The notes under the pieces are model-generated. The model did not search any database and was not told where the DNA came from. It worked only from the letters and a program-made list of their open reading frames with translations. From Candidatus Jorgensenbacteria bacterium GW2011_GWB1_50_10 (lineage in GTDB: Bacteria; Patescibacteriota; Minisyncoccia; UBA6257; GWB1-50-10): a stretch of 64,000 bases of DNA. The position numbers were made by a program, and so were the translations under genes. Where the stretch lies: positions 347 through 64,346 of the forward strand of contig LCQK01000002.1 in NCBI GenBank assembly GCA_001004105.1, read 5' to 3'. Positions within the stretch are counted from its first letter, which is position 1. Every line of letters starts with the position of its first letter. Below are positions 18,825 to 58,564 of this stretch, one piece after another.

Positions 18825-19241
18825 AGTCGCTTTTACCGTTCCGGGAACTTTCCGGGATGGGGTTGGTGGGGGGTTATTAAGCAGTTGGATTTTTGGTTTT
18901 ATTTCTAATATAAATAGATTGACGGTCGTCGGTTAAGTCCGACCTCTGGGTTATGGGTAGCTTGGAATCTGCCCGTTATCAACGAGACCGCCTTCTGCCC
19001 CCATTACCCCGGTTGCGGGGTTATAATCCGAGGAAATCTCCGTCCAAAGGAAAACAAAGGGGAATCGGAGCTCTCAATCGGCCAAGCGATAGAGGGGTAG
19101 CCTAACGCCTTGGTCCAGAAAATCGGACCAAGGCGTTGCTCATTTTCATTTCATCGGGCCGGCGTTTTGGGTTTTTAAAATGCGAACAGCCCCGAAAATT
19201 TCTCGGGGCCGTTTGGCGCAGTAACTGCTCCGTCGCGGGGT

Positions 19242-19532
19242 TCAAAAGAGCAGTTCTTTTACTAGTTGGTCGTTCTGGGCGACCATGATTTTGTTACCTT
19301 GGGCGCGCTCGTCGAGCAGGTGCTCGTAGATGCGAAGGGCGTTGCGTACTAATTCGGCGAAAGTGATGGCATCAGATTTTGCCTTGACGTCTTTCAAGCG
19401 CTTGTAGGTTTCATTTGAAAACTGGAACTGCAACCGATGCCCCGCCGACCGTCCTTTTCGAGCCCTTTTCATTATTAGCTCCCGTGATTTGTGTGCCAAA
19501 TCCAGCGTGCCACAGGTTCTTTTAAGAGTCAA
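19242..19532 (-). CDS. Ribbon-helix-helix (CopG/Arc-like) DNA-binding protein
   Basis: Block HRLQFQFSNETYKRLKDVKAKSDAITFAELVRNALRIY resembles an RHH fold; the start is probably the internal Met. Confidence 0.4.
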   Translation of the reverse strand: MTLKRTCGTLDLAHKSRELIMKRARKGRSAGHRLQFQFSNETYKRLKDVKAKSDAITFAELVRNALRIYEHLLDERAQGNKIMVAQNDQLVKELLF

Positions 19533-19578: not shown

Positions 19579-19812
19579 CTAAGAAGTGGTCTCAATTTTA
19601 ATAAAATCTATTTTATATTGACGTTCTTTAGATGGGTCAAGATGAATTCCTGAATAAGTCCATCCTGGAATATCAGCAACAAAGCTAGTAACTTCTTTAC
19701 AATCAAATGTCGCGACAATAAAATCATCCTTTGGGTTAGGAAAAATAATATTAGTACAACCCATTTTCTCTAAAGCCTCTTTAATTTTCATTAAGATATC
19801 GTTTTTATCCAT
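19579..19812 (-). CDS. Hypothetical small protein (AT-rich island)
   Basis: 77-aa ORF immediately downstream of the ClpP-like gene; about 33% GC. Confidence 0.4.
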   Translation of the reverse strand: MDKNDILMKIKEALEKMGCTNIIFPNPKDDFIVATFDCKEVTSFVADIPGWTYSGIHLDPSKERQYKIDFIKIETTS

Positions 19813-19817
19813 ATTTT

Positions 19818-20363
19818 TTAGTTAATAATTACTATATCTTCTCTTAATACTCCTTTCGGTGGTATTTCTAGATGATTGATGGCTTGCACAATCCCACATT
19901 GAAGTGCTTGTTGTGCAGTAATACTTGTTCCGGTTTTCATCATGTTTTGAACTTTTTGAAGATCTAAACTGCAATTCTCGGAAATAAAATAAGCTATACG
20001 AGTACTCTCTGTTTTTACTGCTAAAAGTTGTTCATTAAGTCCCTTCTCGTCAAATATACCTTGTGTTGTCGCTCCATGCATATAGAATTTTGCATAAGAT
20101 TCTGCCGTTCTCTCTTTTGCGGAAAGATATATCACATTCGCAATAGAATCAATATTATTAGTAGCATGGATAGAAATGGGAATTTTGCAATTTTGAATAA
20201 CAGAAGCTAACGTGAATCCTTCCTGCGTACTCCCTCCTAATGAAGAAAACAATAAAATAATTTTTTTAGCACCTTGTTGAGTAGCGTTATTAACTGCGTT
20301 TAGCAATCTATTACCAAAACCCTGTTCAATTATCCCAGCGAAAACGATATAATAATCCATCAC
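19818..20363 (-). CDS. ClpP/crotonase-fold serine-protease-like protein (S14/S49 class)
   Basis: Aligns by eye to ClpP: LLFSSLGGS against the ClpP SPGGS block, a TNNIDS Ser position, and a FYMHGA His position. AT-rich. Confidence 0.55.
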   Translation of the reverse strand: MMDYYIVFAGIIEQGFGNRLLNAVNNATQQGAKKIILLFSSLGGSTQEGFTLASVIQNCKIPISIHATNNIDSIANVIYLSAKERTAESYAKFYMHGATTQGIFDEKGLNEQLLAVKTESTRIAYFISENCSLDLQKVQNMMKTGTSITAQQALQCGIVQAINHLEIPPKGVLREDIVIIN

Positions 20364-20409
20364 GGTTAAATTATATGTATAAATTTATTTTAAAGATACC
20401 CAACCTTCT

Positions 20410-20798: not shown

Positions 20799-21236
20799 TT
20801 AAAAGACTTTGCTGCTGATTTCAATTTTCACTCCCTTGATATAATTTTCTATTGATTTATGAACCCCTAATTTCATAGCTTCCTCCGGTGATTTCCAAAA
20901 GAATTCCTTAAGTTCTCTATCATCCAGTTTTACATCATCCGTCAGCGCTTCGCAGAGAACATGGAAATATACGAGGTGGGCTTTTCTATGAAAAGCGGGG
21001 TCATTAATCAGTTCTCCAATATTCACGCAATAGAGGGGCTTAAGTTTCAGTCCTGTTTCTTCTTCACCCTCTCTTTTTGCGGCCTCTAAAATTGTTTCGC
21101 CGAGCTCCACATGTCCTCCGGGGAGAAGATATTTCTCACCCCATTTGTGTGATTTTATGAGTAGAACTTTTTTCTCTCTATTCACAATAAGTGCAGAAGC
21201 AACCACCTCAGCATAATTGTAATTTTTAGGTGTCAT
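20799..21236 (-). CDS. NUDIX hydrolase
   Basis: Nudix box GGHVELGETILEAAKREGEEETG. The start is trimmed to the internal Met to avoid overlap with the upstream gene. Confidence 0.8.
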   Translation of the reverse strand: MTPKNYNYAEVVASALIVNREKKVLLIKSHKWGEKYLLPGGHVELGETILEAAKREGEEETGLKLKPLYCVNIGELINDPAFHRKAHLVYFHVLCEALTDDVKLDDRELKEFFWKSPEEAMKLGVHKSIENYIKGVKIEISSKVF

Positions 21237-22233: not shown

Positions 22234-22815
22234 TTGGCAACCAGCCGAGAAAGGCAGGTTCGTATGAAGTACGGGGAACTTACGCTGGGCCAGGTGGAGG
22301 CGATGGTGAATAAGGTCGGCGGCATGGATGGCGTGAAGCGTCTCCTTGCGGGTGAACTTGCGGTCGGCCCGAAGTGGGAAGTTGAGAGCGTCTTCCGCAT
22401 CGACTGCTGGGGTGATCAAACAGCGAGCGAACTCGTCCGGCTCGGCCAATACGACCGGGTAAATGATTTCGTGACGGACGAGCGATTTCCGCTCGTAAGG
22501 CACGACCCCGAGGAGCGCGTGGTTGAGCTCATTAAACTCGCCAACAAATCGACCTCAGAAGAAGTGCTCCGTGAGTTGGAGGTACGCGGTCTTGCCCGGC
22601 CCACAGCCGAAGACGCTCTCTACTTCGGGAGGAAGTATCTTAGAGAGCAACAGAAGCGCCCAATCGTCTTCCTACATGAGCCGGTGCTTGTCCCGGGTGG
22701 TGACCGCGTCGTTCTCGTCCTGGGCGGGTACGCTTCGAGGCGGAATTTGGACCTGCTCTGGTTTGGATATCGGTGGGATCGGTTCTACGCCTTCGCTGGT
22801 GTCCACAAGAAGTAG
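22234..22815 (+). CDS. Hypothetical protein
   Basis: 193-aa ORF, GC-rich, no recognisable domain. Confidence 0.4.
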   Translation: MATSRERQVRMKYGELTLGQVEAMVNKVGGMDGVKRLLAGELAVGPKWEVESVFRIDCWGDQTASELVRLGQYDRVNDFVTDERFPLVRHDPEERVVELIKLANKSTSEEVLRELEVRGLARPTAEDALYFGRKYLREQQKRPIVFLHEPVLVPGGDRVVLVLGGYASRRNLDLLWFGYRWDRFYAFAGVHKK

Positions 22816-31501: not shown

Positions 31502-31741
31502 ATGAAAAATAATATTGTCGGTCTGAAAGAGCTCCGAGAAAATATAGAGAACTACATCGCCCAGGTTAAAAAGGGCAAATCCTTTATTGTAGTGCGCCGC
31601 TCAAAACCGGTGCTTAAAGTTTCTTCCCCTGACGACGAGGGGCTTTGGGAAACCGTTGCTGATTTCACTAAGATAAACAAAAACGGAGTCGCCGCCAGAG
31701 ATGTCTTAAAAGAACTCCGCAAACTGAATGCCCGCTCTTAG
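31502..31741 (+). CDS. Phd/YefM-family type II antitoxin
   Basis: Pattern GLKELRENIENYI....GKSFIVVRRSKPV matches the Phd/YefM N-terminus; followed by an overlapping toxin-like ORF. Confidence 0.6.
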   Translation: MKNNIVGLKELRENIENYIAQVKKGKSFIVVRRSKPVLKVSSPDDEGLWETVADFTKINKNGVAARDVLKELRKLNARS

Positions 31742-31967
31742 AAAACTTCTTTCTAAATTTGACAAGGCGGAAAGAAAAATAATAGAAGCTTTGATTGAGA
31801 AAGTTATTTCTTTGAACTGGCGCGGTTTAGACGTTAAAAAGCTTAAGGGGTATCAAAACATTTTTCGCGTTCGCAAAGGCAAAATCAGGATTATTTTTTC
31901 CAGAAACGGCAAAAATATTTCTATCCTGTCCGTTGAACGTCGGCGAGAAGATACTTATAGGTTGTAA
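31728..31967 (+). CDS. RelE/ParE-family type II toxin
   Basis: Block KKLKG....FRVRKGKIRIIFS..G..I.IL.V.RR...Y; 14-nt overlap with the antitoxin. Confidence 0.6.
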   Translation: MPALRKLLSKFDKAERKIIEALIEKVISLNWRGLDVKKLKGYQNIFRVRKGKIRIIFSRNGKNISILSVERRREDTYRL

Positions 31968-57873: not shown

Positions 57874-58281
57874 GTGAGAATAGATAACAATATCATCCCG
57901 GTAATATTAGTGGTTTATAAGTCAAAGAATGGTTATTGGCATGGTTTTTGCCACCCATACGATGTGTCTTGTAATGCAGAAATTAAAGAAGAGGTTATAA
58001 ACAACCTAGAAGAATTGGTGGAAACCTACGAAAAATCGTTAGAGCGCTATGGGAACCCAATACATCTAATAGAGAAGAAACTTTCTGATAAAGAAGATCA
58101 AGAGAAGTTCAAGAAAATATGGCCGTATGTTTCTAAAAAGATTGCGGAGCATATTAAAACCGCACATAGTCCTATTCGATACTCTCAATATTTATCACGA
58201 GCCAAGAAATTCAGTATTAAATCTGGAGCAGATATAACTTATTCTCACAGAAGTTTATCGTTAACACCCTCACCTCGCTGA
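57874..58281 (+). CDS. HicB-like (UPF0150) antitoxin-like protein; AT-rich
   Basis: N-terminal pattern IPVILVVYKSKNGYWHGFCHPYDVSCNAEIKEEVINNLEE resembles the HicB N-terminus. Confidence 0.3.
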   Translation: MRIDNNIIPVILVVYKSKNGYWHGFCHPYDVSCNAEIKEEVINNLEELVETYEKSLERYGNPIHLIEKKLSDKEDQEKFKKIWPYVSKKIAEHIKTAHSPIRYSQYLSRAKKFSIKSGADITYSHRSLSLTPSPR

Positions 58282-58285
58282 TATT

Positions 58286-58564
58286 GTGGCGGCGCCGACA
58301 GATATTAATTTTGATGATTTCTATGAAGCAGTTAAATCATTAGCTGCACAAAAAGGATTTATTTGTAAACCCTATAAGGGTAAGAAAGCTTCTGCTATAT
58401 GTTTTGAATTTTTCCGAGATGGAGAAAATAAACCGTTTGAGATATTTTGCGTTCATGAAGATAAGAAAAATAGAGTTATATGGTCAGATGATCTCAAAAA
58501 GGCATGTAAAGCGTTAGGAGTAACTAAAAAAGAATTTATTGATTTTACAAAAAATAAAGTTTAA
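58286..58564 (+). CDS. Hypothetical small protein (possibly HicA-like); AT-rich
   Basis: 92 aa, basic, 4-nt gap from the upstream gene. Confidence 0.3.
   Translation: MAAPTDINFDDFYEAVKSLAAQKGFICKPYKGKKASAICFEFFRDGENKPFEIFCVHEDKKNRVIWSDDLKKACKALGVTKKEFIDFTKNKV

Follow-up and report, generated by a model that had tools for sequence, protein, structure and literature searches.

The AT-rich insert at positions 19,579 to 20,363 of the window (the whole 64,000-nucleotide stretch of contig LCQK01000002.1 from Candidatus Jorgensenbacteria bacterium GW2011_GWB1_50_10 that was analysed here) carries two minus-strand genes, the first encoding a short ClpP-family serine protease and the second a 77-residue protein, hereafter called the partner. 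Comparison of related loci shows the insert to be a cassette of just two genes, autonomous and passed on horizontally in the Candidate Phyla Radiation (CPR)/Patescibacteria and in at least one DPANN archaeon. As for its function, the reading that we favour, with a probability of about 40%, is that the cassette encodes an unfoldase-independent protease which would be restrained or directed by the partner, and which would act as a defence or addiction module of the toxin-antitoxin (TA) or abortive-infection (Abi) type. The evidence for the cassette as a unit, for the nature of its two products and for a link with type I restriction-modification (R-M) systems is presented below, and this reading is then weighed against its alternatives.

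The insert stands out by its base composition. The GC content of 19,579–20,363 is 0.329, compared to a mean of 0.491 for the 64-kb window, and it is the GC-poorest stretch of 785 nt in the window (z = -3.3); sliding windows that were equally GC-poor amounted to 0.3% and clustered at the cassette, with the minimum at 19,517. The GC content at third codon positions (GC3) is likewise extreme, at 0.22–0.23 for both cassette genes versus 0.48–0.69 in neighbouring genes. These values bear out an earlier reading of the bare sequence (the original prediction), which had described an insert of about 33% GC and taken its foreign composition as a hint of acquisition. The flanks are indeed GC-richer than the insert, but at about 47–49% (ridA, 0.47; the ribbon-helix-helix (RHH)-like gene on the other side, 0.49) and not at the roughly 52–55% proposed, and the NUDIX hydrolase gene just past ridA (20,799–21,236, minus strand) has a GC content of 0.39 and a GC3 of 0.36, so that the right-hand flank is not uniformly host-like. 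The ridA assignment was confirmed (PF01042, E 6e-37). The other neighbour may plausibly be an RHH regulator; a Pfam search with its 96-residue product gave no match, and the sole match was to PHROG 8557, a family of unknown function.

The two open reading frames (ORFs) lie where the original prediction had placed them, with two corrections. The mechanically called protease ORF runs from a GTG at 20,363 to 19,818 and encodes 181 residues. The homologues, however, all start at the next codon, an ATG at 20,360 ('MDYY…'), which by this comparison is likely the real start; the protease gene therefore spans 19,818–20,360 (minus strand) and encodes a 180-residue protein, identical over its full length (100%) to the database protein P0001 from Candidatus Jorgensenbacteria bacterium GW2011_GWA1_48_13. 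The partner gene occupies 19,579–19,812 (minus strand), and 5 nt ('aaaat', 19,813–19,817, minus strand), not 4 nt, separate its ATG from the stop codon of the protease.

Protease loci were gathered from contig look-ups, species-representative genomes and metagenomes, yielding 77 non-redundant loci (designated by L and a number), almost all of them from CPR bacteria; 70 could be evaluated for the presence of the partner and 69 for GC contrast and for a -10 box. In 50 of the 70 evaluable loci the partner was found directly downstream of the protease, separated by a gap of -1 to 29 nt (mostly 1–12 nt). The divergence of the protease correlated with that of the partner (Mantel r 0.66, 0/2000 permutations), and both genes are under purifying selection, with dN/dS ratios of 0.05–0.13 for the protease and 0.12–0.24 for the partner. 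The pair is thus strongly co-conserved, the opposite outcome having been named in the original prediction as one that would speak against it. Nucleotide similarity between loci was limited to the two ORFs and stopped at their boundaries. A search across the loci for shared flanks, inverted or terminal repeats, att sites or duplications, and tRNA 3'-end duplications found none, and no third gene was conserved across them apart from small GIY-YIG genes (7/77).

A perfect TATAAT (-10-like) box is found at 20,370–20,375 (minus strand), ending 9 nt before the protease ATG. Across the collection, a box with at least five of the six TATAAT positions, ending 3–15 nt (mode 9) before the protease start, was present in 34 of 69 loci versus 11 expected from shuffled sequences (p ~1e-10). 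A generic two-hexamer scan detected no full sigma-70 promoter at the cassette. The box is probably the cassette's own promoter, as judged from its recurrence at this position. Because it lies only 9 nt before the ATG, the transcript is predicted to be leaderless or near-leaderless and, since the short spacer contains no Shine-Dalgarno sequence, translation of the partner is predicted to be coupled to that of the protease.

The family is rare and patchily distributed: it was detected in 19 of 185,579 species-representative genomes, nearly all of them Patescibacteria from many classes, plus one Nanoarchaeia genome. No relatives were found in IMG/VR, and cultured phages and plasmids contained only relatives of about 26% identity. 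In 61 of the 69 loci the AT content of the cassette exceeded that of its flanks (mean difference 5 points, Wilcoxon 1e-10), and the 16-point contrast in the window is among the largest. Synonymous sites were saturated in every pair compared, which means that the sampled lineages are old; the low GC content of the cassette accordingly suggests repeated transfer from, or residence in, AT-rich genomes and not a recent hop between the sampled genomes. The neighbourhoods are unrelated to one another. Some are made up of housekeeping genes (purine genes, CTP synthase, RNase HII, ftsX), and others are variable or defence-related, with AbiJ, AbiEii, a UvrD-like helicase, DNA methylases, a ThsB-TIR protein together with a ubiquitin-like system, a KAP NTPase, an integrase or a serine recombinase.

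Several further features were noted around the cassette. A small gene encoding a GIY-YIG nuclease domain (about 100 residues, PF01541) lies 0.1–1.3 kb from it in 7 of the 77 loci (L012/L038, L014, L016, L018, L034, L036 and L068); among the fetched loci just one more copy occurs at a greater distance (L043), and the window itself has none. Such proximity may reflect a shared hot spot or nuclease-assisted mobility of the cassette. A co-oriented tRNA gene ends 31–227 nt upstream of the protease in 10 of the 77 loci, and in five of them it is a tRNA-Gln (anticodon CTG in L013, L014, L015 and L053, TTG in L040; the other loci are L047, L051, L027, L029 and L080). In L015 (5,004–5,550) and L027 (5,001–5,540) the protease frame is truncated or split into two pieces matched by the hidden Markov model, beside an intact partner; either pseudogenes with a frameshift or faulty assembly may account for this. 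A protein of about 190–245 residues without a Pfam match is encoded 0.3–2.2 kb from the cassette in three loci (22,234–22,815 on the plus strand of the window, 6,108–6,845 in L015 and 2,124–2,765 in L026), and is probably a conserved CPR gene that is not part of the module. An Enterobacter plasmid (L032; NZ_CP091500, 45,568–46,119) encodes a standalone 183-residue ClpP-like protein that shares the 'NIDSIAN' active-site motif (profile E 4e-18); its gene is located among phage lysis and antitermination genes of a phage-plasmid, with no adjacent capsid genes, so that proteobacterial mobile elements may also carry members of the short ClpP lineage.

The protease, which had been aligned by eye to the Ser and His blocks of ClpP, passes the Pfam threshold for Clp_protease (PF00574; 44.4 bits versus a cutoff of 20.2, E 2e-11, residues 13–162). 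Ser73 and His96 (numbered by the 181-residue ORF) are invariant among 20 aligned homologues, as is the GG motif of the oxyanion hole, and the handle helix is retained. The position matching Asp171 of E. coli ClpP is occupied by Gly145/Thr146 ('KTGTS'), and no conserved acidic residue is found in its place. Residue 4 falls opposite residue 28 of S. aureus ClpP, meaning that the protein starts at the first core strand and is missing the roughly 24 N-terminal residues of ClpP that form the axial loops, which gate the pore and dock ClpX or ClpA. At the other end, proteases of the CPR family carry about 19 additional, conserved residues as a C-terminal tail. The closest sequence match in the PDB was 9uxt_A (PpClpP1; E 1e-14), in which Ser73 and His96 align with the Ser73 and His96 of the window protein. 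The same entry was the top Foldseek match (TM-score 0.82) of an AlphaFold2 (AF2) model of P0097, a homologue about 60% identical to the window protease; other ClpPs and SppA followed, and all of the listed top matches were ClpP or SppA peptidases. The alignment by eye thus stands, and the protease is a genuine member of the ClpP-fold family, a Ser-His peptidase without the canonical unfoldase-docking elements.

Its relation to canonical ClpP (MEROPS S14) is therefore one of shared fold, Ser-His pair, oxyanion motif and handle helix, together with a Pfam score above the cutoff. It differs in lacking the catalytic Asp, the N-terminal gate and docking loops and a linked AAA+ gene, in being mobile, AT-rich and patchy, and in falling far below the cutoffs of all NCBIfam ClpP equivalogs and subfamilies (the best was NF009205, with 32.1 bits versus 228). 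The profile of the NfeD/STOPP membrane protease was also below its cutoff (PF25145, 22.5 bits versus 40), and no SPFH/stomatin gene was present among the neighbour annotations obtained. Of the ORFs inspected up to about 3 kb to either side, none encodes an AAA+ unfoldase, a search that did not extend to the remainder of the host genome, and no unfoldase gene was recurrent beside the cassette across the collected loci. These results agree with the earlier description of the protease as standalone, without a clpX partner. Public databases label the protein 'Peptidase S14 ClpP', and its current label 'ATP-dependent Clp protease proteolytic subunit' is probably misleading.

The nearest characterized relative, PpClpP1 of Pseudomonas plecoglossicida (9UXT), is a ClpP shortened at the N-terminus by more than 15 residues. 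It assembles as a tetradecamer, its pore measures 42.7 Å, and it does not bind ClpX; its catalytic 'triad' is Ser-His-Pro, of which Ser and His are needed and the third residue is dispensable (PMC12900304). The CPR protease resembles it in its length of about 180 residues, in the same N-terminal truncation, in the positions of Ser73 and His96 and in having no Asp as third residue. The two proteins differ in sequence (about 23% of residues identical when the P0097 model is aligned to 9UXT by Foldseek), in the third triad position (Pro in PpClpP1, Gly/Thr in the CPR protease) and in the additional C-terminal tail of the CPR family. They also differ in genetic setting, as PpClpP1 is described as a chromosomal paralogue that partners canonical ClpP, with no dedicated small partner gene reported. 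From the handle helix and the 9UXT structure, we infer that the CPR protease assembles into a double-heptamer barrel.

The partner is a real folded protein, encountered only together with this protease. Its 48 homologues share 51–77% identity, and conservation extends along the whole length of the protein. The AF2 model (predicted local distance difference test score (pLDDT) 86.7, predicted TM-score (pTM) 0.74) contains one helix followed by four strands, with the helix packed on the four-stranded sheet, an alpha-beta4 arrangement. No family match was obtained in Pfam, NCBIfam, PHROGs or PADLOC, and searches for a PDB sequence match, a PDB fold match or a viral fold match were equally negative; the partner is thus an orphan, in keeping with the original prediction, which had seen no recognisable motif in the small ORF. 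An exhaustive profile search of 1.84 billion representatives returned 29 matches at E <= 0.001, of which 24 were convincing (E <= 1e-6). All but one of these 24 are standalone proteins of 73–93 residues. The other is P0097 (256 residues, from L031), a candidate for a natural protease-partner fusion that was rejected: the codon at the junction is TGA, a stop read as Trp through an alternative genetic code, making the fusion a gene-calling artefact. As judged from these 24 representatives, the partner is never genuinely fused to another protein.

The partner is absent from 20 of the 70 evaluable loci, and it is these loci that connect the protease to R-M systems. In 8 of the 20 the protease directly adjoins hsdM and/or hsdS, the same being true of L019, whose downstream sequence is missing, versus none of the 50 paired loci (Fisher p = 1.3e-5). 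The loci with an R-M-embedded protease are L017, L019, L021, L063, L065, L069, L070, L078 and L091, and the operon orders include HsdR-HsdM-protease (L019), HsdM-protease-HsdS (L021) and protease-HsdS (L017). In another partner-less locus, L010, the protease is followed by an AAA_15/AAA_21 ATPase. In a neighbour-joining tree of the protease, every deep branch carries paired proteases, and those without the partner, including the R-M-embedded ones, group in a clade nested among them. The pair is therefore ancestral, the partner having been lost when the protease entered R-M operons. Abortive-infection effectors of the PrrC type sit silent inside type I R-M operons (e.g. EcoprrI), and the derived protease clade, embedded between hsdM and hsdS, is similar to them in this arrangement.

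The cassette has the layout of a TA- or Abi-type module, namely a compact pair of co-oriented genes with a 5-nt spacer, mobile and co-inherited. Like these modules, the pair is predicted to be co-transcribed and coupled, moves without a recombinase of its own and occurs in variable regions and beside defence genes, and a link to defence comes from the R-M-embedded clade, from the ATPase gene behind one partner-less protease (L010), from the precedent of ClpXP control over HsdR (PMC4231737, PMC11109961) and from a Phd/ParE-like TA pair in another AT-rich patch of the window. The mechanism that we infer, from barrel assembly and partner binding to the direction of regulation and a defence or addiction phenotype, would run as follows. 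By analogy with PpClpP1, the protease would form a barrel whose pore is wide open, and its cleavage of peptides would require no ATPase. The partner would bind the protease stoichiometrically, as an inhibitor or pore cap in the version favoured here, or else as a substrate selector. Loss or displacement of the partner, for example upon phage infection or loss of the cassette, would then result in ungated proteolysis, and in the derived clade the R-M complex would take over the partner's role. In its most specific form, this model would have the 77-residue protein act as a cap or inhibitor on an open-pore ClpP barrel, its removal unleashing indiscriminate proteolysis like that caused by acyldepsipeptide (ADEP) antibiotics; the cassette would be a new abortive-infection or addiction system specific to the ultra-small cells of CPR and DPANN, and the R-M complex a substitute restraint in the derived lineage. 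We consider this full version doubtful.

Several observations weigh against the TA/Abi-type module. Many of the paired loci, including the one in the window, lie among housekeeping genes and not in defence islands. No defence family in PADLOC-DB 2.0 was matched (the protease gave a spurious hit at E 0.011 and the partner none), nor any known TA family. The gene order, a large enzyme followed by a small partner, fits only a minority of classical TA systems, and a stable barrel protease would be an unusual toxin; to our knowledge, neither the TA toxins nor the defence effectors established so far include a ClpP-fold protease. As for binding, an AF2 run on an unpaired pseudo-fusion of the two proteins gave a pTM of 0.51, with low confidence around residues 88–102 and no trustworthy interface. 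Finally, the activity of PpClpP1 by itself is low and is higher when it joins canonical ClpP in a hetero-complex (PMC12900304), and the CPR enzyme might likewise not be autonomous.

The R-M-embedded clade can also be read in another way, with the protease as a regulator of R-M or other defence systems. It would degrade, for instance, HsdR, allowing restriction alleviation or the safe establishment of R-M genes or mobile DNA, and the partner would be a substrate adaptor. There is precedent in E. coli, where ClpXP controls HsdR by degrading it during restriction alleviation (PMC4231737, PMC11109961), and Patescibacteria depend mainly on R-M for defence (PMC12455944). The position of the derived clade between hsdM and hsdS fits such a role, and some paired loci adjoin methylases or R-M genes. 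However, the type I R-M genes searched for adjoin the cassette in none of the 50 paired loci, no R-M gene was found within about 3 kb on either side of the window cassette, and the degradation of folded HsdR would be hard to explain without an unfoldase. We regard regulation of R-M, the chief rival reading, as unlikely.

The properties of PpClpP1 raise the question of whether the CPR protease is an accessory housekeeping ClpP paralogue that forms mixed rings with canonical ClpP, the partner being an adaptor or assembly factor for proteostasis. PpClpP1 forms a more active heterotetradecamer with ClpP2, which supplies the docking site for ClpX, and the database label given above points the same way. 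A role in proteostasis is nevertheless difficult to reconcile with a family present in so few species-representative genomes (19/185,579), with the foreign GC and GC3 of its genes, with neighbourhoods that are unrelated and similarity that stops at the ORF boundaries, and with a derived clade inside R-M operons. In addition, the partner has no ClpS-like or other adaptor fold. Mixed-ring formation thus seems improbable to us, slightly more so than R-M regulation.

The tight coupling of the two genes would also be expected if the partner were the protease's own substrate, a precursor cleaved into a peptide toxin, signal or bacteriocin. The original prediction had pointed to phage-defence and toxin-processing modules as places where protease-plus-small-partner pairs occur. 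The toxin-processing version is unlikely, as the partner is a conserved folded domain and not a precursor peptide: it is compact and confidently modelled, is conserved over its full length and has no leader/core architecture. No signal peptide is evident in its sequence, and no exporter or immunity gene is conserved nearby. Overall, we hold a precursor role to be very unlikely.

Similarly, the best NCBIfam and PHROG matches of the protease are ClpP-related head-maturation proteases (NF045542, E 9e-13; PHROG 94, 2.5e-9), which raises the possibility of a decayed prophage remnant comprising a head-maturation protease and its scaffold. These enzymes are, like the CPR protease, short ClpP-fold serine proteases without an unfoldase, they are its best profile matches outside Pfam, and remote tblastn matches fall on phage proteases at about 26% identity. 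The NF045542 score is, however, far below the family cutoff (48.6 bits versus 120). The only recurrent flanking family is the small GIY-YIG, with no capsid, portal or terminase in the neighbour annotations obtained; the viral contigs of IMG/VR contain no relatives, and the two genes, as a unit, are subject to strong purifying selection. A phage remnant can hardly be the correct explanation. Lastly, we give practically no credence to a non-proteolytic crotonase-fold enzyme of the enoyl-CoA hydratase type, the assignment that the original prediction had named as decisive against a protease: the weak ECH_1 and PaaF matches cover about 27 residues at E 0.03 (for ECH_1, PF00378, an insignificant local match of 27 residues, 14.1 bits versus a cutoff of 27, E 0.029), whereas both catalytic residues of ClpP, Ser and His, are invariably present where they should be and the listed top structural matches are all peptidases.

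Three other features of the window deserve mention. Two overlapping ORFs of 79 residues each at 31,502–31,967 (plus strand), in an AT-rich patch at about 30.7–32 kb, match a Phd/YefM antitoxin at E 8e-6 and a ParE/RelE toxin at E 0.008, in both cases under the Pfam cutoff; judging from these matches, this further low-GC insert probably holds a type II TA pair. The second-lowest-GC patch (0.334), at 57,874–58,564 (plus strand), contains ORFs of 135 and 92 residues that are 4 nt apart and have no Pfam match, and looks like another compact foreign gene pair. Beside the RHH-like gene, an ORF-poor stretch at 18.7–19.25 kb, which gave no Rfam match, contains a strong 14-bp hairpin with a T-rich tail, terminator-like, at 19,103–19,138 (plus strand).

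CPR/Patescibacteria and DPANN archaea have very small genomes, with few recognised defence systems beyond restriction-modification. Neither the conserved protease-partner pair nor its R-M-embedded derivative is described in the literature searched or in PADLOC. The cassette is a clear and well-supported module with a testable and potentially new protease-based mechanism. If the TA/Abi-type reading is true, a mobile module built on a docking-less ClpP-fold protease would add a new type of effector to the defence repertoire of CPR and DPANN, and it would be a natural instance of 'ungated ClpP', which is also how ADEP antibiotics kill bacteria. The exchange of a small partner for residence in type I R-M operons would, in turn, offer a route to study how proteolysis is wired to R-M control beyond E. 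coli.

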